Assembly (NCBI GenBank): GCA_043823435.1
Contig: JBDRAV010000016.1
Coordinates: 1,122-65,121, forward strand
DNA: 64,000 bases
Origin: Candidatus Omnitrophota bacterium
GTDB lineage: Bacteria; Omnitrophota; Gorgyraeia; Gygaellales; Profunditerraquicolaceae
Reading direction: 5' to 3'
In this document: piece after piece, positions 1,740 through 54,698 of the stretch
How positions within the stretch are numbered: position 1 is the first letter of the stretch
Layout of the letters: each line of letters opens with the position of its first letter
Notes under the pieces: generated by a model
Told to the model about the DNA's origin: nothing
Seen by the model: only the letters and a program-made list of their open reading frames with translations
The model's database searches: none
Position numbers and translations under genes: made by a program

Positions 1740-1904
1740 AGGGACGTCTTTAAATGTAATCGGAAAGCGTTTATGCTATTATTCGAAAGGGTGTCCCCTC
1801 GAGCGACATTTTTCATTCAACTGTCACCTTTTTCCTGTCTGCCCTGTCTGTCCTGACTGCTGTCAGGCAGGGGGAAGGCGGGGGTTGAATTCAATGGTGT
1901 CCCT
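1740..1904 (+). repeat. AGGGAC...GTCCCT-bounded composite element, copy R0 (165 nt)
   Basis: Begins AGGGACGTCTTTA (1740-1752). Contains AAAGGGTGTCCCC (1786-1798), CCTGTCTG tandem words (1834-1850) and the hairpin CCTGAC-tgct-GTCAGG (1852-1867). Ends GGTGTCCCT (1896-1904). Module order matches the copies at 12213 and 34936. Confidence 0.7.
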
Positions 1905-3769: not shown

Positions 3770-3773
3770 GATA

Positions 3774-3853
3774 GCACCAGGTGCAAAGCCAATCGGGCAC
3801 CAGGTGCGAGATTAGGTTTGCAGACGGTACAAGATAGGATTGGCACCCGGTGC
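3774..3853. repeat. Phased array of the 11-bp palindrome GCACC-W-GGTGC (four sites, 23-nt period)
   Basis: GCACCAGGTGC at 3774 and 3797, a degenerate GCAGACGGTAC at 3820, and GCACCCGGTGC at 3843. Spacers contain CCAATCGG / GATTAGG / GGATTGG. Confidence 0.8.
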
Positions 3854-3865
3854 TAGGATAAAATT

Positions 3866-12214: not shown

Positions 12215-12394
12215 GGGCGTCTTTATTATTAAAACAGAGATGATTCTAATCCAAAGCAGGGACGACTTTGTTGCCAAAGAAAAGGGTGTCCCTTTTAAGA
12301 TTTTATTTTTAGGGGACACCTTTCGGATTGACAGAAGAAACGGCTTTCCTTTTAGATTCAAAGGCGTCCCCCGATTGAATTTAAAGACGTCCCT
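12213..12394 (+). repeat. AGGGAC...GTCCCT-bounded composite element, copy R1 (182 nt)
   Basis: AGGGGCGTCTTTA (12213-12225, overlapping the acsC TAG stop), GGGACGACTTT (12259-12269), AAAGGGTGTCCC (12281-12292), GGGGACACCTTT (12312-12323), AAAGGCGTCCCC (12360-12371), TAAAGACGTCCCT (12382-12394). The boxes can pair as three nested helices. Confidence 0.8.
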
Positions 12395-12410
12395 AAAATA
12401 AGCAAGAGAG

Positions 12411-14336
12411 ATGGAAAAATTAAAAGTTACATTTTATCCGGATAATAAAACCATAGAAGTAGATAAGGGTAAGACTATCCTTTCTGCGGCCATTTCCGCG
12501 GGGGTTTATGTTAATTCCGGTTGTGGCGGTGATGGCGTATGCGGAAGATGCAAGGTTATTTTAAAGAATGGCCAGGTTGTCACCCATCCCAGCGGTAGGA
12601 TAAGTCTCCAAGAGAGAAAACGGGGGATTTATCTGGCTTGCCTGACGACTATACAAAGCGATTTAGAAGTAGTAATTCCTCCCGAGTCGCGGCTCGACTT
12701 AGAAAAATTAAGCCCGGAGGAAATGGACATCAGGCTAAAAGGCCTCTATACGGAATCGGAAGACGTAGAATCAGCGGTATCTATTTTGGGCGAAGAAATT
12801 TTTACGCACTCGCCTTTAGCAACAAAGCTCTATTTGGAATTACCGCCTCCGGACTTAGAAGATAAAATCAGCGATTTGGAAAGGCTCTACCGGCAGATAC
12901 GGCGCATCCAGGATATCCCGATTATGCAGACAGGATTGAGTAATGTCAGGCGTTTAGGCGAAGTTCTGCGCTCTGCGGATTGGAAGGTCACCGTAACCTT
13001 GGGCAAGAGAAACGGGACAGCCGAAATTGTGCTTATTGAATCAGGAGATACTTCCAAAAAGAACTTTGGCCTGTGTTTTGATATAGGCACCACAACCATA
13101 TCCGGGCAGTTAGTAGACTTAAACAATAAAAAGGTCATCGGCACAAAAGCCACCTACAATAAGCAGGCTACATTCGGAAGCGACATTATCACCCGCATTA
13201 TTTATGCGCAGGAACCGGATGGCCTGGAGAAGCTGCATCATGCCGTAATTGACGGGATGAACCAGATGATTCAGGAATTAATCCGCGAAAACAATATAGA
13301 TTTAAATGACGTCAACTGTGTCTTGTGCGCAGGCAACACTACTATGGTGCACCTTTTATTGCGTGTTGACCCTACCTATATCAGGAGAGAACCCTATGTG
13401 CCTACGGCTAATTTTGTTCCGACTATCCGCGCTGCGGAGGCGGGGATAAAGATAAATCCCCGCGGCCTTTTATCCTGTATTCCAGGGATCTCCAGTTATG
13501 TAGGCGGGGATGTTACAGCGGGAGTTTTATCCTGCGGCTTGGACAGTATAGAGGATTTAAGTATCCTGATTGACATCGGCACCAACGGCGAAATAGTCTT
13601 GGGTAGCCGGGATTTTCTCATTTCGGCTTCTGCGTCTGCCGGGCCTGCCTTTGAAGGTTCGGGCGTAAGTTGTGGCATGCGTTCCAGCCGCGGCGCAATC
13701 CAGAAAGTCAAGATTACGCCCGAAGATTTTAAGGTTACTTATAGTACTATCGGCGAAGCCAAGCCGCGCGGCATATGCGGTTCAGGTTACATTGATATTA
13801 TTGCCCAGATGCTTAAGGCAAACTTATTGGATAAGAACGGCAAGATAAAATCGCTTAAGCATGAACGTATCCGCGAAGGAGAAGGCGGAAAGGAATTTGT
13901 AGTTGTGTTTAAGGACGAATCCGAGGCAAGTTTGGATATTGTTATCACTGAAGCAGACATTGAGAATATCAAGCGGGCAAAGGCCGCGATTTATTCTGCT
14001 GCCGCCGCTTTAGTCAAGCATATGGATTTGGATTTCTCTAAGATAAAAAAGATTTTTGTCGCCGGAGGATTTGGTACGTCTATTAATATAGATAGCGCCG
14101 TAGTCATAGGATTATTGCCGGATCTAGAAAGATCTAGATTTATTTTTGTAGGTAATAGTTCTCTGGCTGGAGCGCGCCAGGCACTTTTGTCTTACGATGC
14201 CATTAAGAAGACAGACGAAATCGCCAAAAAGATAACTTATTTTGAATTATCCGTAGAGCCAGGATATATGGACGAATATATGGCAGCGTTATTCTTTCCT
14301 CATACGGATTTGTCGAAATTTCCGAGCGTAAAATAA
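12411..14336 (+). CDS. Corrinoid activation/regeneration protein (RACo/AcsV type: 2Fe-2S ferredoxin domain plus ASKHA ATPase)
   Basis: 641 aa. N-terminal plant-type ferredoxin motif CGGDGVCGRCKV. ASKHA-like DIGTTT / DIGTNGE motifs. Occupies the position of orf7/RACo in acs clusters. Confidence 0.88.
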   Translation: MEKLKVTFYPDNKTIEVDKGKTILSAAISAGVYVNSGCGGDGVCGRCKVILKNGQVVTHPSGRISLQERKRGIYLACLTTIQSDLEVVIPPESRLDLEKLSPEEMDIRLKGLYTESEDVESAVSILGEEIFTHSPLATKLYLELPPPDLEDKISDLERLYRQIRRIQDIPIMQTGLSNVRRLGEVLRSADWKVTVTLGKRNGTAEIVLIESGDTSKKNFGLCFDIGTTTISGQLVDLNNKKVIGTKATYNKQATFGSDIITRIIYAQEPDGLEKLHHAVIDGMNQMIQELIRENNIDLNDVNCVLCAGNTTMVHLLLRVDPTYIRREPYVPTANFVPTIRAAEAGIKINPRGLLSCIPGISSYVGGDVTAGVLSCGLDSIEDLSILIDIGTNGEIVLGSRDFLISASASAGPAFEGSGVSCGMRSSRGAIQKVKITPEDFKVTYSTIGEAKPRGICGSGYIDIIAQMLKANLLDKNGKIKSLKHERIREGEGGKEFVVVFKDESEASLDIVITEADIENIKRAKAAIYSAAAALVKHMDLDFSKIKKIFVAGGFGTSINIDSAVVIGLLPDLERSRFIFVGNSSLAGARQALLSYDAIKKTDEIAKKITYFELSVEPGYMDEYMAALFFPHTDLSKFPSVK

Positions 14337-15092: not shown

Positions 15093-16048
15093 TGTTGGAG
15101 AAGTGGTCAGGTGCTGTATCCGTTGTAAATATCGGCGCAACCAAGGAAGAGGGTGGAACGCGCTCCAGGGTTGTCCGGATAGGAGGTCAGGCGACACTAC
15201 CTTTCTTATTTCAGGAAGGAGCGATACCCAATAAGCCCGTAATTGCCTTTGAAATCTGGGATTTTGCGCCCGGAGATTGGCCACAGGGATTAAATAAAGC
15301 TTATGCCGGTGTTTTTGATGATCCGCTTGTATGGGCTGAAGAATGCGTTAAAAAACATAAGGCAGAATTGCTCTGCGTAAAATTACAGGGAGCGCATCCG
15401 GACTTCGGCAATAAATCTGCCGATGAAGAAACTAAATTCATCAGCGAGTTATTAAAAAAGGTAGATGTGCCTTTGATAATTTTAGGATGCGGAGATGATG
15501 ATAAGGATAACCTGGTTATTCCTGCGTGCTGTGAAGCTGCCAAAGGAGAGCGGTGCCTTGTAGGCAGCGCTGTACAGGATAACTATAAGACTATGACCGC
15601 AGCGGCTCTGGCCGACGGACATAACATAGTAGCGGAATCCCCGATCGATATAAATATCGCCAAGCAGCTAAATATCCTGATTTCCGATATGGGCTTACCC
15701 TTAGAGCGCATCGTTATTAACTCTACAATAGGCGCGCTGGGTTACGGATTGGAATACGCATATTCTATAATGGAGCGCGCAAGGCTGGCAGCTCTTTCCG
15801 GAGATAAAATGATGGCGTGCCCTTTTATCTGCCTCGTGGGCCAGGAGGCATGGCGGGCAAAAGAGGCAAAGGCCTCGGCAAACGAATTCCCTTCCTGGGG
15901 CCCAGAGTCAGAGCGCGGTATAGCCTGGGAGGCTATTACCGCCACAGCCTTGATTCAGGCCGGAGGCGATATTTTAGTAATGCGGCATCCCAAGGCTATA
16001 GAGAAAGTAAATAACTATATAGATAATTTGACAAGTATTAACGCATAG
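15077..16048 (+). CDS. acsD: Corrinoid iron-sulfur protein small subunit (acetyl-CoA decarbonylase/synthase delta, AcsD/CdhD)
   Basis: 323 aa. Size and position between cooC/acsF and acsE. TIM-barrel-like CdhD pattern (assignment rests mainly on context and overall resemblance). Confidence 0.8.
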   Translation: MAQELMLEKWSGAVSVVNIGATKEEGGTRSRVVRIGGQATLPFLFQEGAIPNKPVIAFEIWDFAPGDWPQGLNKAYAGVFDDPLVWAEECVKKHKAELLCVKLQGAHPDFGNKSADEETKFISELLKKVDVPLIILGCGDDDKDNLVIPACCEAAKGERCLVGSAVQDNYKTMTAAALADGHNIVAESPIDINIAKQLNILISDMGLPLERIVINSTIGALGYGLEYAYSIMERARLAALSGDKMMACPFICLVGQEAWRAKEAKASANEFPSWGPESERGIAWEAITATALIQAGGDILVMRHPKAIEKVNNYIDNLTSINA

Positions 16049-16120
16049 CGTAGAGCGTTTAGTTCTACTATACGCTAACCGCTACCCCTGCCTGCCGGCA
16101 GGCAGCGCTAAACGCTAAAG
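16046..16120. repeat. acsD-acsE spacer built from heptamer words plus an 18-nt perfect palindrome
   Basis: TAGCGTA GAGCGTT TAGTTCT (16046-16066), the perfect palindrome CTGCCTGCCGGCAGGCAG (16088-16105), and CGCTAAA CGCTAAA (16106-16119). The 14-mer ATAGCGTAGAGCGT and the word CGCTAAACGCTAAA recur at 32998-33061. Confidence 0.8.
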
Positions 16121-16136
16121 ACTGGAGCTTAAGGAT

Positions 16137-26743: not shown

Positions 26744-26826
26744 GGGTAGGTACCCAAGTGGCCAAAGGGGGCAGACTGTAAATCTGCTGCGCTTGCGCTT
26801 CAGAGGTTCGAATCCTCTCCTGCCCA
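26744..26826 (+). tRNA. tRNA-Tyr (GUA), long variable arm. CCA is not encoded.
   Basis: Acceptor GGGTAGG/CCTGCCC, anticodon loop CTGTAAA, long extra arm typical of bacterial tRNA-Tyr. Confidence 0.9.
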
Positions 26827-34935: not shown

Positions 34936-35098
34936 AGGGACGTCTTTATTACCAAAGCAAAGGGTGTCCCAGATTCAAAGCAAAGGCTGTCCCCTCTTAA
35001 TATGGGCACCCTTATGATTGACGCAAGAAACCACTTCCCCTGCCGGCAGGCAGTGATTGGGTCAGAGGACGTCCCCTGATTGATTTAAAGGCGTCCCT
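34936..35098 (+). repeat. AGGGAC...GTCCCT-bounded composite element, copy R2 (163 nt)
   Basis: AGGGACGTCTTTA (34936-34948), AAAGGGTGTCCC (34959-34970), AAAGGCTGTCCCC (34982-34994), GGGCACCCTT (35004-35013), CCCCTGCCGGCAGGCAG (35037-35053), GGACGTCCCC (35067-35076), AAAGGCGTCCCT (35087-35098). Colinear with R1. Confidence 0.8.
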
Positions 35099-35110: not shown

Positions 35111-36700
35111 ATGAATTCATTACTCATTGTTTTTATTGCAGCGGTATTGTTTTTTTGCGCATACAGGTTTTATGCCCGTAAGATAGAAACCCTATGGCAT
35201 ATTGACCCTCATAGGTCGACCCCGGCATATTCTAAATACGACAGCGTAGATTATGTCCCGGCGAAAAACTGGCTGGTATTGTTCGGGCATCATTTTGCTT
35301 CTATATCCGGAGCGGGCCCCATACTCGGGCCGGTTATGGCAGTAATGTTGTGGGGGTGGCTCCCTGCGTTATTATGGGTCATATTAGGCACGATTTTTAT
35401 CGGGGGAGTACATGATTTTGGTTCCTTGATAACTTCCGTTAGGGAAGGAGGGTCATCCGTAGCCGATATCGCCCAGCATGTTATATCTAGGCGAGCCAAA
35501 ATCCTGTTTGCCCTCTTTGTCTGGCTGGCATTGATCCTGATCATAGCGGTTTTTGCTTATCTATGTGCACAGACATTTATAAAGGAACCCAGGGTGGTCC
35601 TGCCGTCATTAGGTCTTATACCGGTAGCAATGCTGGTGGGATATTTCCTCTATAATTTAAGGATAAATTCTGTAGCGGTGACAATCCTCGGCCTTATTTG
35701 TCTTATGGGGTTGATGTTCCTGGGGAATTTCTGGTCTTTGAACATGGGCTTTAAGACATGGCTCCTGCTTTTATTTGCATACTGTTATTTTGCTTCGATC
35801 ATGCCGGTGAACATGCTCCTGCAGCCGCGGGATTATCTCTCTAGCTTCTTGTTATTTTTCGGGGCAGGGGTAGGGTATTTAGGCTTATTATTGTCGCGCC
35901 CCGTAATAAATATGCCTTACTATAGTAAATGGAGCACAAGCGAAGGTTATCTGTGGCCGGCTTTATTTGTTACCGTAGCCTGCGGAGCAGTCTCGGGGTT
36001 TCATTCGTTGATTGCAAGCGGCACCTCATCCAAACAGATTTCCAATGAGCGTTATGCCAAAAGGATCGGTTATGGCGGGATGATCACGGAAGCGGTTGTA
36101 GCGATATTGGCGATAATTTCAGCTGCTGTCCTTTTTAATAGCACAGACGGACAAGGCATGCTGCTTAAAAATCTTACACCTATAGAGATATTCGGGAGAG
36201 GATACGGAGTGATTACGCGGGGTATCCTGGGAGGTTACGGGCAATTAATCGCCATAACCATATTGAATGCTTTTATACTCACGACTCTTGATACCGCGAC
36301 CAGGATATCGCGTTATTTGACCGAAGAACTCTTTGGCCTGAAGAACAGGCATATTTCTACTGGGCTGGTAGTGATCTTCGCGGCAGCTTTAGCATTCAGC
36401 GGCAAGTGGACTAAGATATGGATTACATTCGGCGCTTCTAATCAGCTGGTAGCGGCGCTGGCATTATTCGTTTTAAGTTGTTGGCTTTTATCCAAGAAAA
36501 AACCTGCAAAGTTTACCTTGATCCCGGCTTTCTTTATGCTGATTACTACCGTAGCCGCCCTCTTGTTGCAGGCATCCAGGTATTTAGTTAAAAAGGAGAT
36601 CGTACTTTTTATGGTAGTTATCGTTCTTATTCTGTTGACGGGATTTATGTTCCAGGAAGTTATGCGGGCTATATTTGTCAGGAGAAGAAAACATGCATAA
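35111..36700 (+). CDS. cstA: Carbon starvation protein A family transporter
   Basis: 529 aa polytopic membrane protein. LFGHHFASISGAGPILGP and GGVHDF motifs typical of CstA. Confidence 0.9.
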   Translation: MNSLLIVFIAAVLFFCAYRFYARKIETLWHIDPHRSTPAYSKYDSVDYVPAKNWLVLFGHHFASISGAGPILGPVMAVMLWGWLPALLWVILGTIFIGGVHDFGSLITSVREGGSSVADIAQHVISRRAKILFALFVWLALILIIAVFAYLCAQTFIKEPRVVLPSLGLIPVAMLVGYFLYNLRINSVAVTILGLICLMGLMFLGNFWSLNMGFKTWLLLLFAYCYFASIMPVNMLLQPRDYLSSFLLFFGAGVGYLGLLLSRPVINMPYYSKWSTSEGYLWPALFVTVACGAVSGFHSLIASGTSSKQISNERYAKRIGYGGMITEAVVAILAIISAAVLFNSTDGQGMLLKNLTPIEIFGRGYGVITRGILGGYGQLIAITILNAFILTTLDTATRISRYLTEELFGLKNRHISTGLVVIFAAALAFSGKWTKIWITFGASNQLVAALALFVLSCWLLSKKKPAKFTLIPAFFMLITTVAALLLQASRYLVKKEIVLFMVVIVLILLTGFMFQEVMRAIFVRRRKHA

Positions 36701-37913
36701 GGCGTTAATAGTTCAGAAATTCGGCGGTACCTCCGTAGCTAATGTGGAACGGATACGCAAGGTTGCCCGTCGCGTAGTAAGTTGTCGTAAAAAAGGCTAT
36801 GACCTGGTAGTGGTGGTTTCCGCTTTGGGGGATACTACTGACGAGTTAATTGATTTAGCAAGTAAGATTACCTTTGATCCGTCAGAGCGAGAAATGGATA
36901 TGCTCCTGTCGACCGGAGAGCAGATTTCCGTAGCGCTTCTGGCTATGGCGATACATAAATTAGGATTTGAAGCTATATCCTTTACTGGAGCGCAAGTCGG
37001 GATTATTACCGATACCAGTCATACCCGTGCTCGGATTATAAAAATCAATGCCGAAAAAATAAAAGAAGAGTTAAGACGCGGCAAGATCGTCATTGTGGCG
37101 GGCTTTCAGGGAGTAGCCCTGAATCAGGATATCACTACATTGGGCAGGGGTGGTTCGGATTTGACCGCTGTCGCCCTGGCAAAGGAGCTCTCGGCGCGCG
37201 AATGCGAGATTTATACCGATGTGGAAGGGATATATACTGCTGATCCACGCATAGAGCCGAAGGCCAGGAAAATTAAAGCCATTACCTATGACGAGATGCT
37301 GGAGATGGCTTCATTGGGTGCCCAGGTGATGCAGGCGCGCTCTATTGAAGTGGCAAAAAAGTTCAATGTAGATATACATGTGCGCTCCAGTTTCAATGAC
37401 GAGGTCGGAACAATGATTACCAAGGAGGTCAAGAGAATGGAAGACGTGGTTGTAAACGGCGTAACCCTGAACAAAAATGAGGCCAAGATTACGGTTTGTA
37501 ATGTCCCTGACCGCCCGGGTATAGCGGCAAAGATATTCAAGCAGTTAGCCGATAAAGGGGTAAGCGTAGATATGATAGTCCAGAATGTTAGCCATACCCG
37601 CCAGACGGATATATCTTTTACCATAAACAAAGCAGATGTGTACAAGACTCTGAAGATTGCTAAGAAAGTGGCTATGGGTATAGGGGCAGGGCAAGTATTG
37701 CAGGATAATGATGTTGCGCGGGTTTCTATAGTCGGTGTAGGAATGAAGTCTCATCCGGGTGTCGCAGCTACCATGTTCGATTCTTTAGCGGATAATAAGA
37801 TCAACATCGAAATGATTTCTACCTCGGAAATCAGCATTTCGTGTATTATAAAAAAGAGGTTTGCCGAGAAAGCGGTCAAGGCGTTGCACGACAAATTCGG
37901 CTTATCTAAATAA
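36693..37913 (+). CDS. lysC: Aspartate kinase (with ACT domains)
   Basis: About 406 aa from ATG 36693 (GGAGAAG at 36681-36687; overlaps the cstA stop by 8 nt). VQKFGGTSV, VVVSALGDTTDEL, GRGGSDLTA motifs. Confidence 0.94.
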   Translation: MHKALIVQKFGGTSVANVERIRKVARRVVSCRKKGYDLVVVVSALGDTTDELIDLASKITFDPSEREMDMLLSTGEQISVALLAMAIHKLGFEAISFTGAQVGIITDTSHTRARIIKINAEKIKEELRRGKIVIVAGFQGVALNQDITTLGRGGSDLTAVALAKELSARECEIYTDVEGIYTADPRIEPKARKIKAITYDEMLEMASLGAQVMQARSIEVAKKFNVDIHVRSSFNDEVGTMITKEVKRMEDVVVNGVTLNKNEAKITVCNVPDRPGIAAKIFKQLADKGVSVDMIVQNVSHTRQTDISFTINKADVYKTLKIAKKVAMGIGAGQVLQDNDVARVSIVGVGMKSHPGVAATMFDSLADNKINIEMISTSEISISCIIKKRFAEKAVKALHDKFGLSK

Positions 37914-37971
37914 GGGACACTTCTTGACCCAATCAAGGGACACTTCTCCGGCCAATCGGAGAAGTGTCCCC
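37913..37971 (+). repeat. AGGGACACTTCT-type element (59 nt) with a perfect 13-bp hairpin
   Basis: GGGACACTTCT at 37914 and again at 37937 (23 nt apart). GGGACACTTCTCC (37937-37949), loop GGCCAATC, GGAGAAGTGTCCC (37958-37970). The first A is the last base of the lysC TAA stop. Confidence 0.85.
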
Positions 37972-39571: not shown

Positions 39572-42289
39572 ATGAATGATATCCCGACCCGCTATAACTC
39601 CAAAGATACCGAAGATAAATGGTATAAATTCTGGGAAGAGAATAATCTATTTTCCGCAAAAGTAGACCCTTCTAAAAAGCCTTTTTGCATCGTTATCCCT
39701 CCTCCGAACGTAACCGGAATACTGCATATGGGACATGCCCTGAACAACACGATTCAGGATATCCTTATTAGGTATCACCGTATGAAAGGGGAGGAATCTC
39801 TCTGGATGCCGGGTACCGACCACGCCGGTATAGCGACCCAGAATGTGGTAGAGAAATCTATCGCCAAGGAAGGTTTAAAACGCCAGAACCTGGGGAGAGG
39901 AAAGTTCATTGAAAAAGTCTGGTGGTGGAAGGAGGAATACGGCTCCACCATTATCCGTCAGTTAAAGAAGTTGGGCGCTTCCTGTGACTGGCAGAGGACG
40001 CGCTTTACGATGGATGCAGAGTATTCCGAATCCGTGACAGAGGTGTTCGTCAGGCTTTATGAAAGAGGCCTTATCTACAGGGGAAGCTATATTATTAACT
40101 GGTGCCCGCGCTGCCAGACGGCCTTAGCGGATGAAGAAGCTCCACATCACGAATTGCAGGGTAATCTGTATTATTTGCGCTATCCTGTAAAAGGTCGGCT
40201 CCCCGAAGAAGCAGACTTTTATATCGTCGTAGCTACTACCCGCCCGGAAACTATGTTAGGCGATACTGCGGTTGCGGTCAATCCCAAAGACAAAAGGTAC
40301 AAGAAGCTTATTGGTAAGACCATCATTCTGCCTTTAGTCAACAGAGAGATAAAGATAATTTCCGATAGTATGGTAGATATGAAATTCGGCACCGGAGCGG
40401 TAAAGGTAACCCCGGCGCATGACCCTAACGACTACGCGTTAGGCAGAAAGCACAAACTGGAATTTGTGAATATTATGCGCCCGGACGGATGCCTGAATGA
40501 AAATTCCGGGGATTACAGCGGCATGGACAGGTTTGAGGCAAGGGAGGTCGTGCTTGAAGACCTAAAAGACAAGGGTTTATTGGAAAAAGTAGAACCGCAT
40601 GGTTTATCCGCGGGGCACTGTTACCGTTGCCATACTATTATTGAGCCGTATTTATCCGAGCAGTGGTTTATAAAGATGAAGCCGTTGGCTAGGCCGGCAA
40701 TAGAGGCAGTTAAGAAAGGCAGGATCAAATTCCACCCGAAACGCTGGACAAAGGTCTATCTTAACTGGATGGAGAATATTCAGGATTGGTGCATCTCCCG
40801 CCAGATATGGTGGGGGCATCGCATCCCTGTATATTATTGTAATAATTGTCACAAGAAGGGTCAGACCCCTTCGGGGACAGATCCTAACAAGAGTAGGGTT
40901 ATTGTTTCTAAAATTAAACCGGAAAAATGCCCTCGCTGCGGCTCAAACGATATCTATCAGGATGAAGACGTATTGGATACCTGGTTTTCCTCGTGGCTGT
41001 GGCCGTTTGCGACTTTCTATTGGCCAGCACAGCAGGGTCAGTCCCCTTCGGGGACAGACCCTGACAAGGACCTGAAATATTTCTACCCAACTTCAGTTTT
41101 AGTAACTGCCCCAGAGATAATCTTCTTCTGGGTCGCCCGCATGATCATGGCAGGGCTTGAATTTATGCACGATATTCCTTTTAAAGATGTCTATATCCAC
41201 GGCACCGTGCGTGATATCGAAGGCAAGAAGATGTCCAAGTCCTTAGGCAATATAATCGACCCCCTTGATATTATAAACGAATACGGGGCGGATGCGCTGC
41301 GTTTCAGCCTGATCTCCATAACCGCACAGGGTCAGGACGTATTCCTATCACAAGAGAGATTCGAACAGGGCAGGAACTTTGCGAATAAGATCTGGAATGC
41401 TTCAAGATTTGTTTTGATGAATCTGGAACCTTCCAATATAAACACGGACCTGTGTGTATTCTTCAAGAATGAGGACCTGGATATAGTCAACCGCTGGATA
41501 TTGAGCAGATTTTATTCGACCCTGAAGGAGGTCGGGAAGAAGCTCGATCTTTATAAATTCAACGAAGCGGCAAATATACTTTATGGGTTCTTCTGGCATG
41601 AGTTTTGCGATTGGTATCTGGAGGTAATCAAGCCCGACATAAAGAAGAAACACAATCAGGTTGTAATGTATAAGGTCCTGGAGAAGTTTTTGAGGATATC
41701 GCACCCCTTTATGCCTTTTGTAACCGAAGAGCTCTGGCACAAGCTTGACGAGAATAAAGGCTCTATCATGCTGGAACCGTGGCCGCATCTGCAGGAGGAT
41801 TTGATCGATAAAAAAGCAGAGTCAAAGATGGCCGGCATCTTTGAGGCGATCTCTACTATCAGAATGATGCGTTCGGAATTAAAGATACCTCCTCAAAACA
41901 GGATCAATGCAGAGATATTCGTAAAGAACAAAGCGAGGAAAGACCTGATTTTATCCATGGAGCCGCTTATTATGGGCATGTCCAGGCTTGAATCGTTGAT
42001 CATCAAGCAAGACTATGCTCCCCTTAAAACCCAGTACGTAAGAATATTGAAGGAGATGACAATAGTCATTCCGCTTTCGGGCATAATAGACGCCGATAAA
42101 CTGAAGAAAGACAAAGAAGACGAGATAAAGAAGACGGAATCAGAGATAAAAGCCAAGAAAAATATCCTTTCTAACGAGAACTTTGTAAAGAAAGCTCCCA
42201 GGGAGGTAGTAGAGAATGAAGAATTAAGGCTGCAAGAACTCAATAAAACGTTAATAGAACTGAAAGGAATCAGAGATGGTCTCAAATAA
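39572..42289 (+). CDS. valS: Valine-tRNA ligase
   Basis: 905 aa. HMGH (HIGH variant), KMSKS, QDEDVLDTWFSS, C-terminal coiled coil. Carries two in-frame 39-nt repeat insertions. Confidence 0.97.
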   Translation: MNDIPTRYNSKDTEDKWYKFWEENNLFSAKVDPSKKPFCIVIPPPNVTGILHMGHALNNTIQDILIRYHRMKGEESLWMPGTDHAGIATQNVVEKSIAKEGLKRQNLGRGKFIEKVWWWKEEYGSTIIRQLKKLGASCDWQRTRFTMDAEYSESVTEVFVRLYERGLIYRGSYIINWCPRCQTALADEEAPHHELQGNLYYLRYPVKGRLPEEADFYIVVATTRPETMLGDTAVAVNPKDKRYKKLIGKTIILPLVNREIKIISDSMVDMKFGTGAVKVTPAHDPNDYALGRKHKLEFVNIMRPDGCLNENSGDYSGMDRFEAREVVLEDLKDKGLLEKVEPHGLSAGHCYRCHTIIEPYLSEQWFIKMKPLARPAIEAVKKGRIKFHPKRWTKVYLNWMENIQDWCISRQIWWGHRIPVYYCNNCHKKGQTPSGTDPNKSRVIVSKIKPEKCPRCGSNDIYQDEDVLDTWFSSWLWPFATFYWPAQQGQSPSGTDPDKDLKYFYPTSVLVTAPEIIFFWVARMIMAGLEFMHDIPFKDVYIHGTVRDIEGKKMSKSLGNIIDPLDIINEYGADALRFSLISITAQGQDVFLSQERFEQGRNFANKIWNASRFVLMNLEPSNINTDLCVFFKNEDLDIVNRWILSRFYSTLKEVGKKLDLYKFNEAANILYGFFWHEFCDWYLEVIKPDIKKKHNQVVMYKVLEKFLRISHPFMPFVTEELWHKLDENKGSIMLEPWPHLQEDLIDKKAESKMAGIFEAISTIRMMRSELKIPPQNRINAEIFVKNKARKDLILSMEPLIMGMSRLESLIIKQDYAPLKTQYVRILKEMTIVIPLSGIIDADKLKKDKEDEIKKTESEIKAKKNILSNENFVKKAPREVVENEELRLQELNKTLIELKGIRDGLK
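40853..40891 (+). repeat. In-frame 39-nt hairpin-forming repeat in valS, copy 1 (KKGQTPSGTDPNK)
   Basis: AAGAAGGGTCAGACCCCTTCGGGGACAGATCCTAACAAG. The palindromic core is at 40858-40884. Confidence 0.85.
41030..41068 (+). repeat. In-frame 39-nt hairpin-forming repeat in valS, copy 2 (QQGQSPSGTDPDK)
   Basis: CAGCAGGGTCAGTCCCCTTCGGGGACAGACCCTGACAAG. The core at 41035-41061 is a 27-nt palindrome with one mismatch (12-bp stem, loop TTC). It starts exactly 177 nt (59 codons) after copy 1. Confidence 0.88.
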
Positions 42290-43161: not shown

Positions 43162-45147
43162 GTGGAAAAATTCAAGTTAGTCTCTGATTATAAGCCTTGC
43201 GGCGACCAGCCCAGGGCGATAAAAGAGCTATCTGGCTCGATTGGGTCGGGTAATAAGCACCAGACTCTGCTCGGCGTGACCGGATCCGGGAAGACCTTTA
43301 CTCTGGCCAATGTTATCGCCAGGATAAACCACCCTACACTGGTTATCTCCCATAATAAAACCCTGGCCGCGCAACTCTATTCGGAATTCAGGGAATTCTT
43401 CCCGCATAACGCCGTAGAATATTTTGTCAGTTATTACGATTATTATCAGCCCGAGGCATATATACCTTCAACAGATATATACATAGAAAAGGACGCTTCT
43501 ATTAACGACAGGCTGGACCGCCTGCGTCTTTCTGCGACCACTTCGCTTATGTCACGCCGCGATTGTCTTATTGTGGCTTCTGTGTCTTGCATATATAATC
43601 TTGGTTCACCGGACGAATACCGCGATTTACTTGTTCTTGTTGAAAAAGGGGAGTCTGTGTCGCGCGATAACTTGATATCAGGACTTGTTAAAATACAATA
43701 TGAGAGGAACGATTACGAGTTTATCCGCGGGAGGATAAGGGTCAGGGGCGATGTCGTAGAAATATTTCCTTCGTATGAAGAGGTCGCGCTGCGTCTAGAG
43801 CTTTTCGGAGATAAGGTAGAGAAGATATCGCAGATAAACCCTGTTTCGGGAGAAGTCCTGAATTCCCTGGATAGGATAGCGATATATCCGGCCAAACATT
43901 TTATATTCTCAGGAGAGGGGCTTGGCAGAGCGCTTAAGTCTATCGGGCAGGAGTTAGAAGAGAGGCTGAATATCTTAAGGGGTAAGAATAAATTATTGGA
44001 GGCCGAGCGCCTTGAATCCCGCACTAAATATGATATGGAGATGCTTAAAGAGATAGGCTATTGCCATGGTATCGAGAATTATTCGCGGCACCTTTCAGGC
44101 AGACCTCAAGGCTCAAGGCCGTATTGCCTCATTGATTATTTCCCGGATGATTTTCTCGTGGTAGTCGACGAGTCTCACGTAACCTTGCCTCAAATAAGGG
44201 GCATGTATGAAGGTGACCGCGCCAGGAAAGAGGTGTTAGTAGAATACGGATTCAGACTCCCCTCATGCCTCGATAACCGGCCTTTGAAGTTTGAAGAATT
44301 CAGGGACATAGTAAAACAGCAGGTATTCGTTTCCGCAACGCCCGATGAATACGAGATAAAAAATAGCCAGGGTCTTGTCATTGAGCAGATTATCCGGCCT
44401 ACCGGCCTGGTTGACCCTAAAATTATAATCAAGCCATCCGATGGCCAGATCGAAGACTTGATTAAAGAAGTAAAGAAGCGTGCCCGACGAAATGAGCGCG
44501 TCCTTATCACGACTTTAACTAAAAAATTGGCCGAAGACTTAAGTGTCTATTTACAGGAGAAGGGATTAAAGGTAAAATATTTACACTCCGAGGTAGAGAC
44601 TATTGAACGTTCAAGGATTCTCAGAGAATTAAGGCGTAAAGAATTTGATTGCTTAGTGGGAATAAATCTGTTAAGGGAGGGCCTGGACCTGCCCGAAGTT
44701 TCCCTTGTCGCAATATTGGACGCAGATAAGGAAGGTTTCTTGAGATCCGCTACTTCGCTGATACAGGTATCCGGGCGTGTAGCGCGCAATATAAACGGGA
44801 CCGTGATCATGTATGCCGATACCGTAACTGGCTCAATGAAGAAGGCAATCGCCGAAAGCGAAAGGAGAAGGGATAGGCAGTTCGATTTTAACAGGAAAAA
44901 TAAGATTACGCCGCGGTCTATTAAGAAGAGCATAAAACATGGGATAGAGGATTTAGAAGGAGCGCAGGAATTTGTGGCAGATTTAACCGGCCAGGATAAA
45001 GATGAATATGAATTAAGCAGGTATATTTCGGAACTAGAATACGAGATGGAACTTGCAGCGAGGAACCTGCAGTTTGAGAAAGCAGCGGTAATCCGCGATA
45101 AGATAAGAGACCTAAAACCGATCAACAGTAACAGGGACACTTCTTGA
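43162..45147 (+). CDS. uvrB: Excinuclease ABC subunit B
   Basis: 661 aa. [13 protein letters not shown]-terminal UVR domain ([11 protein letters not shown]). GTG start. The last four codons and the TGA stop lie inside the repeat at 45133. Confidence 0.97.
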
Positions 45148-45249
45148 CCCAAAGTAAGAAGTGTCCCCTAGAAGGTAATCTTAAGTAAATGGGGACATTT
45201 CTCCGATTAGCATGAGAAGTGTCCCTCGATTGGGACGAGAAGTGTCCCT
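45133..45249 (+). repeat. AGGGACACTTCT-type element (117 nt) with three hairpin units
   Basis: GGGACACTTCT (45134-45144) / AGAAGTGTCCC (45157-45167). GGGACATTTCTC (45192-45203) / GAGAAGTGTCCC (45214-45225), with one G-U pair on the plus-strand transcript. GGGAC (45232-45236) / GAGAAGTGTCCCT (45237-45249). The first 20 nt are identical to 37913-37932. Confidence 0.85.
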
Positions 45250-45263
45250 AAGAGGGAGGAGAG

Positions 45264-46043
45264 GTGCTGTTAGCCGTTGATATAGGAAATACGAATATAA
45301 ACCTGGGATTATTCAAAGATAAGAGGATAATCAAAAGATTTATTATTCTTACGAAAGCCGGGCATTATAAGCTTCGCCTTCAAAAGATAATTAAGCGTAA
45401 TAAGGTTGATGACGCAATAGTCTGCGGCGTAGTTCCGGCGGCCGAAGAGGCCATAGGAAAAGCGCTGAGGGGATCCCTGGGTAAGCGGCCCTATATTATA
45501 GGTAAGGGGATAAGGGTGCCTATAAAGAACATTTACCGGAAGCCCCGCCAGGTAGGAGAGGACCGCCTAGTAAATGCCTATGCAGGAGTTATGCTCTACG
45601 GCGCACCGCTCATTATGGTTGATTTCGGTACCGCGGTCACATTTGATATTGTTTCAAGAAAGAAAGAGTACCTCGGGGGCATGATCATCCCGGGGCTTGG
45701 GATATCCCTGGAAGCTCTTAATATGCGGACAGCACTTCTGCCTAAGATAAAACTGGAAGAGCCTAAGGAATTCATAGGCCGGGACACTAAAAACAGCATG
45801 TTAAGCGGGATAATTTACGGGTTCGCCGCTCTCAGCGATGATCTGGTTACGAGAATAAGGCAGAAGATAGGAAGAAATGCGAAGGTAATCGGCACTGGCG
45901 GTAATATCGGCTTAATTGCTAAATACTGCCACAGGATAGATAAGATAGATAAGGATTTGACCCTAAAAGGCCTGAGCCTTATTTATAGAAATTTGTTAGA
46001 TTCTGCGGTAATGTATCGTAGCATTAAGGGGAGTATTCATTAA
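45264..46043 (+). CDS. coaX: Type III pantothenate kinase
   Basis: 259 aa. LLAVDIGNTN, VDFGTA, GTGG motifs. GTG start after GAGGGAGGAGAG. Confidence 0.93.
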   Translation: MLLAVDIGNTNINLGLFKDKRIIKRFIILTKAGHYKLRLQKIIKRNKVDDAIVCGVVPAAEEAIGKALRGSLGKRPYIIGKGIRVPIKNIYRKPRQVGEDRLVNAYAGVMLYGAPLIMVDFGTAVTFDIVSRKKEYLGGMIIPGLGISLEALNMRTALLPKIKLEEPKEFIGRDTKNSMLSGIIYGFAALSDDLVTRIRQKIGRNAKVIGTGGNIGLIAKYCHRIDKIDKDLTLKGLSLIYRNLLDSAVMYRSIKGSIH

Positions 46044-46055
46044 TAAAAATTTTCC

Positions 46056-46083
46056 TTGACAAAAAATTTTTTTCTTTTATAAT
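46056..46083 (+). promoter_or_regulatory. groESL promoter (sigma-70 type)
   Basis: TTGACA (46056-46061), 16-nt spacer, TATAAT (46078-46083). It abuts the CIRCE operator. Confidence 0.7.
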
Positions 46084-46109
46084 TAGCACTCTGGAATTAA
46101 GAGTGCTAA
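46083..46109. promoter_or_regulatory. CIRCE operator (HrcA binding site)
   Basis: TTAGCACTC-TGGAATTAA-GAGTGCTAA is a perfect match to the CIRCE consensus TTAGCACTC-N9-GAGTGCTAA. It lies between the promoter and groES. Confidence 0.95.
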
Positions 46110-46199
46110 TTATAGTCCATAGTTGATATTCCAAGCAGCACAGTTAAAAATAGATGTTAGGGACCAAGAACCAATAATTAATTAAAGGAGGTGTAAGAG

Positions 46200-48206: not shown

Positions 48207-48213
48207 ATGGGGG

Positions 48214-48270
48214 GGGACAGGTGCCCGATTGGATTTGCACCTGGTGCCAGATTAGCTTTGCACCAGGTGC
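48214..48270. repeat. Phased array of three GCACC-W-GGTGC-type palindromes (23-nt period), inverted relative to the 3774 array
   Basis: GGGACAGGTGC (48214, a hybrid GGGAC/GGTGC box), GCACCTGGTGC (48237), GCACCAGGTGC (48260). Spacers contain CCGATTGG and CAGATTAG. Confidence 0.8.
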
Positions 48271-51167: not shown

Positions 51168-51171
51168 TTTG

Positions 51172-51262
51172 GTTCGCAAGTTCGTAAGTTCTTCAGTTCG
51201 TAAGTAATTAAAGAATTGTTATGAACCAATGAACTTTAGAACTAAAGAGCAATAGAGCTTTT
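51172..51262. repeat. Two opposed octamer arrays filling the guaA-dnaE spacer
   Basis: GTTCGCAA GTTCGTAA GTTCTTCA GTTCGTAA (51172-51203), then GAACCAAT GAACTTTA GAACTAAA GAGCAATA GAGCTTTT (51223-51262). GTTC and GAAC are reverse complements. Confidence 0.75.
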
Positions 51263-51263
51263 A

Positions 51264-54200
51264 ATGCCTCACTCCGACTTCATCCACCTCCATCTACATA
51301 CCCAATACAGCCTTCTTGACGGCGCCTGCCGTATTCCCAAGCTTTTAGAGCGGGCAAAGCAATATAAGATGGATTCCCTTGCCATTACCGACCATGGCAG
51401 CATGTTCGGCGCAATAGATTTTTACCTGGAAGCCCAGAAGGCCGGTATAAAACCCATTATAGGATGCGAGATGTATATCGCACCATCAAGCCGCCTGGAG
51501 AAGGCATCCGCAGGTATTGATGAAGCAGCATACCATCTTATACTTCTTGCGCGCGATGAAGCCGGATACCAAAACCTGATAAAACTTGTATCCATAGGGT
51601 ACCTGGAAGGTTTTTATTACCGGCCGCGCATTGACAAAGAAATCCTATCCCAGCATCAGAAGGGCCTTATTGCTATGACTGCCTGTCTTAAAGGAGAAAT
51701 ACCCTCATTCTTACAGCAGAGGCGTTTTAACGACGCCCTGAAGACCGCTGATGATTTCCTGAATATTATGGGTAAAGAAAATTTCTACCTGGAGGTACAG
51801 GGCAACAGCATCCCAGAGCAGAAGATAGTAAATGAAGGATTGATAAAAATATCCAAAGAGCTGAACATACCGCTTGTCGCTACCAACGATGTGCATTACC
51901 TTTCAAGGGAGGATGCCGTAAGCCACGAAGTCTTGCTCTGCATCCAGACCCAGTCCACGCTGAATGACCCTAACAGGATGCGTTTCCAGACTGACGAATT
52001 CTATTTCAAATCCCCTCAGGAAATGAAGGAGCTTTTTAAGGATATACCGCAAGCGCTCGCTAATACTCTGGAGATTGCCGGCCGCTGCAATTTAGAGCTG
52101 GACTTTTCCAAGATGCATTTACCGCGCTATGATCCACCCGATGGCAAAAACAAAGAAGATTATTTAAGAGAACTTAGTGAAATAGGATTAAAGGAAAAAT
52201 TCCCGGAAGCGACCCCCGATATAATGACGCGCCTAGAACACGAACTAGGCCTTATTAAAGACAGAGGATTTGTAAGTTATTTCCTGATCGTCTGGGATTT
52301 CATACACTACGCAAAGAATAATAATGTTCCCGTCGGCCCGGGGCGTGGCTCAGTTGCGGGGAGCCTAGTAAGCTATCTTCTCGGGATAACAGATATCAAT
52401 CCTTTGAAGTACGGGTTGCTTTTTGAGCGCTTCCTTAACCCTGAGAGGCTTGGTCTCCCCGATATTGATATTGATTTCTGTTACGAGAGAAGGAACGAAG
52501 TCATTGATTACGTGACCAGAAAATACGGAAAAGGAAACGTTGCCCAGATCATCACATTTGGAACAATGCAGGCGCGCGCGGTAGTCAGGGACGTGGGCAG
52601 GGTAATGGGGATGAGCTATGCCGACGTTGACCGTATCGCCAAGATGATACCTCCTGATCCTGGTATTAGTCTCAAAGACGCATTAGAAAGCGAGACCGAA
52701 CTAGGAAAGCTTTATAGAAATGATACGCAGATAACTAAGTTGATCAATACCGCCATCTCCCTGGAAGGCCTTAACCGCCACGCCTCCACGCATGCCGCGG
52801 GTGTTGTCATTTCCGATAAGCCTCTGGATAACTATACGCCTTTGTTTGAGACCCAGGACGGACAGATAACCACCGGCTACAGCATGGGGGTCCTGGAAAA
52901 GATAGGTTTGCTGAAGGTAGACTTTCTGGGATTACGTACACTGACCGTGATCGATGAAACACGCAAGATAATAGAAAATACCAGGGGCATAAAAATAGAC
53001 ATTAAAAACATCTCTCTTGATGACGGCAATACTTATAAGCTTCTGAATTCAGGCCAGACTATCGGGGTCTTTCAGGTAGAGAGTTCCGGCATGCGCGACT
53101 TATTGAAAAAACTCCAGCCTGACCGTTTTGAAGACTTAATCGCGCTACTTGCTTTATACCGTCCCGGTCCTATCGGTTCGGGCATGCTTGATGATTTTAT
53201 GCAGCGCAGGCACGGACGCGTGTCCATAAAATACCAACACCCGAAGCTGGAAAATGTTCTTAAGGAGACTTATGGTATAATCGTATATCAGGAACAGATC
53301 ATGCAGATAGTTTCCGAACTCGCCGGATTCAGCCTCGCGCAGGCAGATATGTTACGCCGCGCCATAGCCAAGAAGATACCCGAGGTTATGGAACAACAGA
53401 GGAAGAACTTTATTTTAGGATGCATCAAAAACGATATCAGCGAATCCGTATCAAACCGTATATTCGACCTTATAGAGTATTTTGCAGGATACGGATTTAA
53501 CAAATCGCATTCAGCAGCGTACGCCATGATCTCTTACCGTACGGCATACCTGAAAGCTAATTTTCCGGTAGAGTTTATGTGCGCGCTCCTTACCTCAGAA
53601 AGAGACAATACCGACAAGATAGTTGAATATGTAAATGAATCCTACCGTATGGGGATAAAAGTCCTGCCTCCCGATATCAATGAAAGCGAGGCTCTATTTA
53701 AGGTTGTGGACGAGAAGACAATACGTTTTGGTCTGCTTGCGGTGAAAAACGTAGGGGGCGGAGCTGCCGAATCCATAGTCAGCTCAAGGCAGGAGGGGGC
53801 GTTTAGCTCCCTGGAGGATCTCTGCCAGCGCATTGACTCAAGGCTGGTTAACCGTAAGGTCCTGGAGAGCATGATAAAATGTGGTGCGCTGGATTCATTT
53901 GGTTTGCCAAGGGCGCAGATGTTTGTTTCTCTTGCCACAATCATGGAGATATCTTCCAGGGCGCAAAAGGATAAGGCAAAAGGGCAGATCTCATTCTTTG
54001 ACGCAGGGTTCGCGGAAGATTCATTTAAGAGCACGGCAAACAATTTGCCCTCCATAAAAGAGTGGCCCGAGCCGCAACTGCTTGCTTTTGAGAAAGAGAT
54101 GCTGGGATTTTACGTTACGGGACATCCTCTGGCGCGCTATGCCCATGAACTTAAACGCTTTACCTCTTCATCCACGGCTAACCTCCACGAGCATGAGGAC

Positions 54201-54698
54201 GGCAGAGAGATAAAGATAGTAGGGTTAATTGCCAAAATCAAACAGACAGTTACCCGCGCGAAACAGGAGAAGATGGCTATATTGAAATTAGAGGATCTTG
54301 ATGGAGCTGTTGAGGTTCTAGTTTTTCCGGCTGCCTTCCAGAAATCTTCAAGATATATCCAGCCCAGTACCGTGGTCCTTGTGAAAGGCAGGGTTGACCG
54401 TAGGGAGGATATACCTAAAATCGTAGCCAATGACCTTTTTCCTATGGACGAAGTATATAAATTGGTCACCAGCGTAAATATAAACCTTTCAGGAGTACGC
54501 GAAAACCTTTTTGAGAGCTTAAAAGAGTTGTTGGTTCAATACCCCGGTAAGATACCTATATATATGCACATGGATACGCCTGCCAGGTCAAGGGTGCATC
54601 TTGTTGTCGGGGAAGGGCTTTACGTTTCTCCTTCCGATAAATTAATCCGGGAGATAGAATCGCTGTTAGGCGAGGACCGCGTATCTTTAGTGATATAG
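51264..54698 (+). CDS. dnaE: DNA polymerase III alpha subunit
   Basis: 1144 aa. PHP domain FIHLHLHTQYSLLDG, catalytic GPGRGSVAGSLVSY..DIDIDF, OB fold near the C-terminus. Confidence 0.97.
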   Translation: MPHSDFIHLHLHTQYSLLDGACRIPKLLERAKQYKMDSLAITDHGSMFGAIDFYLEAQKAGIKPIIGCEMYIAPSSRLEKASAGIDEAAYHLILLARDEAGYQNLIKLVSIGYLEGFYYRPRIDKEILSQHQKGLIAMTACLKGEIPSFLQQRRFNDALKTADDFLNIMGKENFYLEVQGNSIPEQKIVNEGLIKISKELNIPLVATNDVHYLSREDAVSHEVLLCIQTQSTLNDPNRMRFQTDEFYFKSPQEMKELFKDIPQALANTLEIAGRCNLELDFSKMHLPRYDPPDGKNKEDYLRELSEIGLKEKFPEATPDIMTRLEHELGLIKDRGFVSYFLIVWDFIHYAKNNNVPVGPGRGSVAGSLVSYLLGITDINPLKYGLLFERFLNPERLGLPDIDIDFCYERRNEVIDYVTRKYGKGNVAQIITFGTMQARAVVRDVGRVMGMSYADVDRIAKMIPPDPGISLKDALESETELGKLYRNDTQITKLINTAISLEGLNRHASTHAAGVVISDKPLDNYTPLFETQDGQITTGYSMGVLEKIGLLKVDFLGLRTLTVIDETRKIIENTRGIKIDIKNISLDDGNTYKLLNSGQTIGVFQVESSGMRDLLKKLQPDRFEDLIALLALYRPGPIGSGMLDDFMQRRHGRVSIKYQHPKLENVLKETYGIIVYQEQIMQIVSELAGFSLAQADMLRRAIAKKIPEVMEQQRKNFILGCIKNDISESVSNRIFDLIEYFAGYGFNKSHSAAYAMISYRTAYLKANFPVEFMCALLTSERDNTDKIVEYVNESYRMGIKVLPPDINESEALFKVVDEKTIRFGLLAVKNVGGGAAESIVSSRQEGAFSSLEDLCQRIDSRLVNRKVLESMIKCGALDSFGLPRAQMFVSLATIMEISSRAQKDKAKGQISFFDAGFAEDSFKSTANNLPSIKEWPEPQLLAFEKEMLGFYVTGHPLARYAHELKRFTSSSTANLHEHEDGREIKIVGLIAKIKQTVTRAKQEKMAILKLEDLDGAVEVLVFPAAFQKSSRYIQPSTVVLVKGRVDRREDIPKIVANDLFPMDEVYKLVTSVNINLSGVRENLFESLKELLVQYPGKIPIYMHMDTPARSRVHLVVGEGLYVSPSDKLIREIESLLGEDRVSLVI

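Follow-up and report, generated by a model that had tools for sequence, protein, structure and literature searches.

Introduction

The uvrB-coaX junction of a 64-kb stretch of Candidatus Omnitrophota DNA (contig JBDRAV010000016.1, positions 1,122 to 65,121; here called the window) carries a palindromic repeat, at 45133-45249, from which uvrB takes its last codons and its stop. Its closest described counterparts come from four settings. REP, BIME and REPIN repeats (PMC3116915, PMC3337134, PMC2817692) are imperfect palindromes of ∼36 nt that stand alone or form clusters of alternating orientation and have conserved linker motifs, and two inverted copies with a spacer give a longer hairpin. They lie between genes within transcription units, form several subfamilies per genome and remain for long periods at orthologous junctions, REPINs in particular persisting at conserved sites (PMC3116915, 10.1101/2022.05.22.493013). 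The QMITE1 and QMITE2 elements of Coxiella burnetii overlap the 3' ends of functional genes, including the DNA-repair genes ruvB and recN, by 1 to 50 bp and supply C-terminal residues and/or the stop codon, and strains differ in the position of the stop at enhC (PMC5896051). Rickettsia palindromic elements (RPEs) are in-frame palindromic repeats that add short peptide segments to unrelated housekeeping genes (PMC10969869). Escherichia coli REPs within 15 nt of a stop codon, according to the account of Liang, Rudd and Deutscher (2015) given in PMC12306157, stall ribosomes and reduce translation.

The Omnitrophota repeat shares all of the REP, BIME and REPIN features listed above, and its 36-nt hairpins with 11-bp stems fall within the 20-40 nt of REPIN short palindromes. 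Its sequence, however, is unrelated and lacks the GTAG/CTAC tetranucleotide that REPINs conserve at the hairpin foot; its own motif is an invariant CGATTGG, separated from the arm by 4 nt within a strict 23-nt module; there is an extra tandem unit on one side, beyond the basic REPIN plan; one copy overlaps the end of an open reading frame (ORF), that of uvrB, and related hairpins are in frame in valS. Whereas REPINs are known from Enterobacteria and Pseudomonas, the host here is an uncultured member of the Omnitrophota, and no RAYT, the REP-associated tyrosine transposase, was found in 221 kb with a weak query; in REPIN systems this Y1 HUH transposase is single-copy and has the repeats on its flanks. 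REPINs number tens to hundreds per genome and are almost all extragenic, compared with seven intergenic sites in 64 kb here. The terminal inverted repeats are like those of MITEs, miniature transposable elements that have inverted repeats, but the target-site duplication of MITEs was not seen at the sites compared. The QMITEs are alike in being small non-autonomous inverted-repeat elements that supply gene 3' ends, but sequence, size and host differ, and their direct repeats and association with IS1111 were not seen here. RPEs measure ∼100-150 bp and encode 30-50 residues, compared here with in-frame pieces of 27-51 nt in valS, equal to 9-17 residues, and with a UvrB tail contribution of 4-22 residues; the in-frame behavior is alike and the sequences are unrelated, so the likeness is one of behavior and not of family membership. 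As in the E. coli REPs described in PMC12306157, a stable hairpin stands at the stop codon, but uvrB has its stop within the hairpin, flanked by the two arms, and relatives place it differently. A repeat that supplies the 3' end and stop of a gene is already known from other bacteria, while the Omnitrophota repeat family itself is new.

The 3' end of uvrB

A sequence-only reading of the window had pointed to a 20-mer, AGGGACACTTCTTGACCCAA, shared by the ends of lysC and uvrB. Searching the window returned exact plus-strand matches at 37913-37932 and 45133-45152; on the minus strand, 45230-45249 holds a third copy that differs at 2 positions. From a shuffled window, 0 matches were expected. The 11-mer core GGGACACTTCT/AGAAGTGTCCC, allowing at most 1 mismatch, occurs 8 times against 0.75 expected, and every occurrence falls within 37913-37971 or 45133-45249. 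The same reading had the repeat begin on the last base of the lysC stop and end uvrB in frame, and both points hold: the lysC ORF runs from 36675 to 37913, the final A of its TAA being the first base of the repeat, and the uvrB ORF ends ...P-I-N-S-N-R-D-T-S-stop, with AGG GAC ACT TCT TGA at 45133-45147. Pfam confirms UvrB, aspartate kinase, a citramalate/isopropylmalate-synthase-like protein and type III pantothenate kinase, and the NCBI product MFH1889093.1, from a Candidatus Omnitrophota metagenome-assembled genome, is an identical UvrB of 661 aa. Recoding of TGA was ruled out, as 12 of the 53 window genes terminate with this codon.

Comparison of empty and filled sites bears out the proposal that the element replaced the original UvrB C-terminus and stop. 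Relatives (their loci are labeled L and a number) keep the gene order apgM-cstA-lysC-cimA-valS-nadC-uvrB-coaX-groES. At the empty sites of L167, L170 and the more distant L001, uvrB ends ...KELKGAFSH-stop, HAVSR-stop or SRVFSH-stop, and its TGA lies inside coaX, the GTG or ATG start of which is 17 nt upstream of that stop, so that the two genes overlap by 17 nt. In nine carriers (the window, L081, L082, L084, L085, L168, L169, L171 and L172) the element separates uvrB codon ∼652 from the coaX start, and the uvrB frame continues into it. Entry is as AGG GAC in every carrier except L085, where hairpin 1 is missing and uvrB runs into the following arm in the frame AGG GGA. In the window coaX is now 116 nt from uvrB and has its own Shine-Dalgarno sequence; where the element is absent, the coaX start falls within uvrB.

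A census of the 120 nearest UvrB homologues (P0001-P0120) found 36 tails of the short overlap type, ending ..SH or ..SR before the stop, and 15 element-derived ones; all 15 tails of the form RD(T/V/A)... are accounted for by read-in to the GGGAC element. The sequence-only reading had named an element-free UvrB ending in NRDTS as the observation that would speak against remodeling, and since no homologue without the element among the 120 has this ending (0 cases), the claim survives. In this clade the part of UvrB that follows the UVR helix (...IRDKIKEL) is hypervariable, with 0-27 residues in these homologues, and it appears to be set by whatever sequence occupies the uvrB-coaX junction. The contig of one homologue, P0028 (ENA ERZ27297570, 7082 nt), has a mirror-image gene list, uvrB-coaX / coaX-uvrB, and looks like a palindromic assembly artifact.

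Judged from the sequences, the RDTS ending of the window is what a lineage-specific early stop has left of an older tail that was longer and likewise encoded by the element, because L081, the nearest relative, has CAG where the window has TGA and the window frame past the TGA (CCC AAA GTA AGA AGT GTC CCC TAG) still matches the QPKARSVP-stop of L081. The older TAG, at 45169-45171, is still in frame in the window, and by this comparison uvrB at the clade level reads on through all of the first hairpin. TGAC as the variable block is common only to the uvrB and lysC copies of the window; we therefore infer that the TGA came by copying or gene conversion and that sequence was exchanged between these two copies. 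The element-encoded residues 658-661 lie beyond the UVR domain, since the domain ends at residue 652 in Pfam, and the four extra residues are most likely neutral.

The comparison thus places the element where uvrB and coaX formerly overlapped by 17 nt, and its insertion removed the last five or six uvrB codons together with their stop. As a result uvrB reads the terminal arm of the element, in the frame AGG GAC, to the first stop. In most carriers this stop comes after hairpin 1, adding 12-13 residues, while in the window genome the TGA in the hairpin loop ends UvrB after RDTS. We think that a single-strand hairpin-recognizing enzyme (HUH/RAYT-like) is the most likely candidate for the mobilizing activity, and a stable hairpin straddling the stop may slow termination of uvrB translation. 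The comparison of sequences supports the view that a repeat insertion supplied the UvrB C-terminus and stop. What it demonstrates is a tolerated insertion, and no further function is claimed for the element.

Architecture of the repeat family

Each 23-nt unit, the building block of the family, has three parts: the nearly invariant CGATTGG, replaced by CCAAAGC in the unit at the left end; 4 nt that vary; and a 12-nt arm that ends GTCCCT or, in one subtype, GGTGC. A full element is composed of a reverse unit and a forward half unit, a linker, and then a reverse half unit followed by two forward units, and a 60-nt short form equals the full element without the first hairpin and linker. The lysC-cimA copy has the short form and is 88% complementary to 45190-45249. 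The ends are terminal inverted repeats (AGGGAC.../...GTCCCT) of the MITE type, AGGGACNNNNNT ... ANNNNNGTCCCT bounding elements of 60-165 nt, within the 50-500 bp of MITEs, which have no coding capacity themselves.

Two 36-nt hairpins are contained in 45133-45249. In elements with different outer and inner arm types (L168, L169 and the window copies at 12258 and 34936), the terminal arms pair at 10-11 of 11 positions, versus 8-9 in the local hairpins, and the inner arms pair around a linker of 3-22 nt; the element is therefore a nested composite palindrome. In the window uvrB copy the terminal arm of forward unit 2 pairs 11/11 with 45134-45144, and the minimum-free-energy fold gives the same nested picture. 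The whole element can thus fold as a single long nested hairpin, REPIN- or MITE-like. Compensatory changes maintain both local stems in the nine copies compared for each: hairpin 1 has 97% of its cells paired, with 10 cells changed on both sides and 3 pairs showing compensatory changes, and 90% in hairpin 2, with 12 cells changed on both sides. For either hairpin, 0 of 500 shuffles reached the observed pairing or covariation score. The earlier description of three hairpin units needs correction, as the third (45227-45249) repeats in tandem the 23-nt unit before it and its 5-bp GGGAC/GTCCC stem is absent from relatives; a nested composite palindrome plus one tandem unit is the better description.

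The family has no counterpart in Rfam at gathering threshold, where a scan of the whole window returned 5 tRNAs and nothing else, and a permissive scan of 45080-45300 gave chance-level matches far under gathering scores (E ≥ 0.18). The GTAG motif is absent; what is conserved in the flanks is CGATTGG/CCAATCG or, in left-end units, CCAAAGC.

Table 1. Positions of the uvrB-coaX element, its parts and tails, the other family copies and further repeats; positions are those of the window unless a locus label is given
Feature	Position	Strand	Remark
uvrB, 661 aa	43162..45147	+	UVR domain to residue 652; RDTS (658-661) and stop from element
Hairpin-1 5' arm, the outer terminal arm (AGGGACACTTCT)	45133..45144	+	uvrB codons R-D-T-S
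uvrB stop TGA	45145..45147	+	First 3 bases of hairpin-1 loop; L081 has CAG and reads on
Hairpin 1	45133..45168	+	Reverse 23-nt unit and forward 13-nt half unit; perfect 11-bp stem
AT-rich 22-nt linker	45169..45190	+	Apical loop of nested fold; begins TAG, the in-frame stop used by L081
Hairpin 2	45191..45226	+	Reverse half unit (GGGGACATTTCTC) and forward unit 1 (CGATTAGCATGAGAAGTGTCCCT); holds the single U-G pair
Forward unit 2 (CGATTGGGACGAGAAGTGTCCCT)	45227..45249	+	Tandem copy of unit 1; outer terminal arm
Shine-Dalgarno region (GGGAGGAG) and coaX GTG start	45250..45266	+	New with element
coaX, type III pantothenate kinase	45264..46043	+	Once overlapped uvrB; Pfam
UvrB tail from element, window			RDTS, then stop
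UvrB tail from element, L081 (nearest relative)			RDTSQPKARSVP, then stop
UvrB tail from element, L082 and L172			RDTLPAKAKGVP, then stop
UvrB tail from element, L084			RDALPAKAKSVPK, then stop
UvrB tail from element, L168			RDVFAAKAKGVP, then stop
UvrB tail from element, L169			RDVSLPKARTVP, then stop
UvrB tail from element, L171			RDISSAKARSVP, then stop
UvrB tail, L085			22 residues, reads across entire element
Family copy upstream of gatC	1740..1904	+	Divergent intergenic region
Family copy between gatA and gatB	3772..3859	+	GCACCWGGTGC arm subtype; CCAATCG/GATTRG linkers
Full-length copy between cdhD and RACo gene	12258..12394	+	Outer arms GACGNCTTT type, inner arms GGTGTC type
Full-length copy between apgM and cstA	34936..35098	+	
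Short 60-nt form between lysC and cimA, inverted	37913..37971	-	From last base of lysC TAA
Short 60-nt form between groEL terminator and guaB promoter	48213..48270	+	GCACC subtype
27-nt GGGWC...GWCCC hairpin in frame in valS	40858..40884	+	..GQT-PSGTDP..; absent there in L084, L167, L169, L170
Second in-frame 27-nt valS hairpin	41035..41061	+	QGQSPSGTDP; absent there in L081, L169
valS hairpins in relatives	L084 7026-7052; L085 6152-6178, 7022-7048; L170 6996-7046, 7827-7853, 8568-8618		
51-nt element in L170 spacers	L170 4736-4786; 21271-21321		lysC-cimA; another spacer
Tandem 7-8-nt filler	16040-16135, 32990-33065, 51170-51255; L085 3680-3900; L172 6940-7060; L005		In L005, downstream of uvrB
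42-46-nt direct repeats	26826-26867, 26915-26956; 29499-29674		

Distribution and signs of turnover of the copies

Seven intergenic sites of the family lie within the window (lysC-cimA, uvrB-coaX and five more), six of them in a shared orientation. One full-length copy separates cdhD from the RACo gene in a Wood-Ljungdahl region at 10886-14336, which encodes CdhD, the CO dehydrogenase/acetyl-CoA synthase delta subunit, and RACo, a corrinoid reductive activase. Clusters of the unit pattern were confined to the window and its close relatives L081-L086 and L167-L172, whose UvrB proteins are ∼79-87% identical, and the other ∼1.5 Mb of fetched loci, including the distant Omnitrophota L001-L005, gave isolated chance matches at ∼0.45 per 10 kb. 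Relatives at 73-74% identity from a scan of genome collections were used as distant empty-site and negative controls; a metagenome scan with UvrB peptide patterns returned loci at most 74% identical as the best among the matches listed. The tandem-unit pattern had no match among 2.9 million viral contigs, nor did the element match plasmid or phage records, and a literature search returned no paper linking Omnitrophota with REPINs, MITEs or intergenic palindromes. It is likely that 45133-45249 is one copy of a dispersed non-coding palindromic repeat family specific to one Candidatus Omnitrophota clade.

Several differences between genomes are signs of turnover. At the apgM-cstA junction the window has a 163-nt element, and L082, L084, L085 and L167 are empty, with 4-6 nt. 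Compared with L084, the window, L081, L082 and L167 have the lysC-cimA copy in the opposite orientation. The L085 element equals the L168 element minus hairpin 1 and linker, consistent with a deletion between direct arms. The arms of the lysC and uvrB sites are uniform, all eight being of the ACTTCT type in the window and all of the ACCCTT type in L082; the window, L081 and L082 are roughly equidistant from one another, at 12-15% amino-acid divergence over 1,791 columns.

Several observations weigh against reading the element as one copy of a dispersed repeat family. The empty-site loci L170 and L167 have the filled-site L169 and L085 as their nearest neighbors, with bootstrap values of 74% and 52%, and because these values are no higher, repeated insertion is indistinguishable from a single filling followed by several losses: both fit. 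Filled and empty states compared at uvrB-coaX and apgM-cstA show no target-site duplication. A tblastn search of 221 kb of the window and its relatives with an E. coli RAYT as query turned up no transposase or RAYT, a weak negative. Both the lysC-cimA and the uvrB-coaX junctions are occupied across ∼25% protein divergence, and this, together with the shared orientation of six of the seven copies, could reflect selection for a function. Copy number, moreover, was counted within the 64-kb window. A MITE is expected to have a related autonomous insertion sequence with matching terminal repeats; no insertion sequence was seen in the window and the fetched relative sequence, in which no search was aimed at autonomous ones, and the ten window proteins scanned with Pfam are housekeeping or without known function.

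In-frame hairpins in valS and other repeats

Hairpins of 27-51 nt, of the form GGGWCWGWCCCC-loop-GGGGACWGWCCC, also lie in frame in valS (39572-42289 in the window), at four alignment positions and variably among 8 related genomes. L170 has a closely related 51-nt element, with the GGGACTGTCCC arms kept and the loop diverged, in valS and in two spacers.

Other short repeats occupy spacers and may reach UvrB in the same manner. One intergenic filler consists of tandem 7-8-nt repeats (TAGCGTA, AGTTCGTA, ATCAAAA, ACTAACT) followed by their inverted complement, and the UvrB tails SNIKITDDISH or SNIKNQISKIKIKD of some relatives appear to be read from it. A GC-rich short palindrome, CCTGCCGGCAGGCAG, recurs in spacers at 16088-16106, 35041-35053 and 1845-1875, one copy lying within the apgM-cstA element, and the UvrB tails SLPHRQAG... 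and DIPACRQAGR look like translations of this palindrome. Direct repeats of 42-46 nt with a hairpin (e.g., AAATTTTCCCGACAAGGGAAAATTT) are found between and beside the genes for tRNA-Tyr, tRNA-Gly and tRNA-Pro. Of a different kind is an intein, with Intein_splicing and LAGLIDADG domains, in dnaE of L082 (18316-21992, 1601 aa); dnaE of the window (51264-54698, 1144 aa) is without it.

Strand, transcription context and alternative explanations

The sequence-only reading had taken a single U-G pair, in the middle one of its three hairpins, as a sign of RNA structure in the sense orientation. This does not stand: one such pair carries no information on the strand, both strands fold about equally (-57.8 versus -52.9 kcal/mol for the uvrB element, -37.9 versus -40.6 kcal/mol for the lysC element) and the mismatches seen family-wide on the same strand are G·U pairs in hairpin 1 and A·C in hairpin 2, that is, without strand preference. 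The two mismatch types follow from the transitions that distinguish outer from inner arm types. With similar folds and different mismatch types in the two hairpins, the argument for a sense-strand RNA structure was rejected.

We likewise rejected the idea that the repeats at uvrB-coaX and lysC-cimA act as terminators or promoters, no such sites having been found at these junctions. Because no promoter-like or terminator-like site was found anywhere between lysC and coaX, the element is, on this sequence evidence, probably transcribed within a long operon. Nearly all window genes are on the plus strand and the GC skew is positive throughout, so that a transcription-linked and a replication-linked orientation bias are inseparable. 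The sole large minus-strand gene of the window is an ORF of at least 554 aa at 1-1662, which runs off the left window edge and has no Pfam match. The region upstream of groES (46056-46110) has a sigma-70 promoter that matches the consensus perfectly (TTGACA-16-TATAAT) and, after it, an inverted repeat of the CIRCE type, TTAGCACTC-N9-GAGTGCTAA; this promoter region is conserved in L081, L082, L168 and L169.

Against this background we weighed whether the copies might be selected cis-acting intercistronic RNA elements, with the uvrB overlap as a by-product, and consider this unlikely. Equally doubtful are the two forms that such a role could take, namely that the invariant CGAUUGG loops on co-varying stems are a platform for a clade-specific RNA-binding factor or RNase, and that the module sets the stability or translation of the downstream gene. 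The architecture is indeed conserved just upstream of the ribosome-binding site of the downstream gene at two junctions across ∼25% protein divergence, the stems co-vary around a nearly invariant CGATTGG, the elements lie inside an apparent single long transcription unit and six of the seven window copies are co-oriented with the genes. However, the flanking genes are functionally unrelated (gatCAB, cdhD/RACo, apgM/cstA, lysC/cimA, uvrB/coaX, groEL/guaB), the lysC-cimA copy is inverted in some genomes, presence and absence differ between close relatives, one copy lies after a terminator and upstream of a promoter, the mismatch patterns show no strand preference, and gene orientation is confounded with replication direction. 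We give a similarly low probability to the broader idea that modules of the 23-nt unit are more than selfish DNA and form a clade-specific, portable "operon-junction cassette," with a trans factor recognizing CGAUUGG on co-evolving stems. If true, this would account for the joint change of all arms across the loci of one genome. Such a cassette would supply a purine-rich flank for ribosome binding, separate gene pairs that overlap and control mRNA processing or the translation of what lies downstream, and it would be stop-free in at least one frame and hence tolerated in ORF ends and protein loops.

Somewhat less probable still, and argued by analogy, is that the hairpin straddling the uvrB stop was co-opted to lower UvrB output through ribosome stalling. 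The arms at 45133-45144 and 45157-45168 form 11 perfect pairs and enclose the stop (45145-45147), and a ribosome at the TGA would have to hold hairpin 1 open, because only 10 nt separate the first base of the stop codon from the beginning of the 3' arm; the stalling by E. coli REPs close to a stop, as described in PMC12306157, points the same way. In most relatives, though, the stop comes after hairpin 1, and L085 lacks that hairpin, so no stop-to-hairpin geometry is conserved, and for this reason we treat a stalling effect in the window as possible but unselected. That the units are double-stranded DNA binding sites, operator- or iteron-like, for a regulator or nucleoid protein is very improbable. 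The tandem 23-bp direct repeats are identical within a site, the cores GGGACGTCCC, GGGACWGTCCC and GCACCWGGTGC are palindromic, some arm subtypes being DNA palindromes, and one copy lies directly upstream of a near-consensus promoter. Most copies are nevertheless inside operons where no promoter-like site was found, copies occur within valS as well, and the arms vary between sites and genomes while their complementarity is kept, which argues for a constraint on the hairpin rather than for a fixed operator. A dispersed palindromic repeat family, one copy of which was inserted and tolerated at the end of uvrB, remains the reading that we prefer.

Implications

The case serves above all as a well-documented and useful example and is hardly surprising. 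In this clade UvrB ends in hypervariable residues that derive from the repeat, and alignments and functional inference should disregard them. To our knowledge, the Omnitrophota are a phylum without cultured representatives. The repeat family lies outside Rfam and the literature searched, and its clear 23-nt grammar could serve work on mobile DNA, strain variation and binning. The hairpins in valS and the UvrB tail represent translation-compatible, RPE-like palindromic insertions outside Rickettsia. If a trans-acting partner exists, be it a transposase or an RNA-binding factor, the coordinated change of arms across loci could help to find it. The empty and filled states of a gene pair that once overlapped offer a natural experiment on translational coupling after the insertion of a hairpin.

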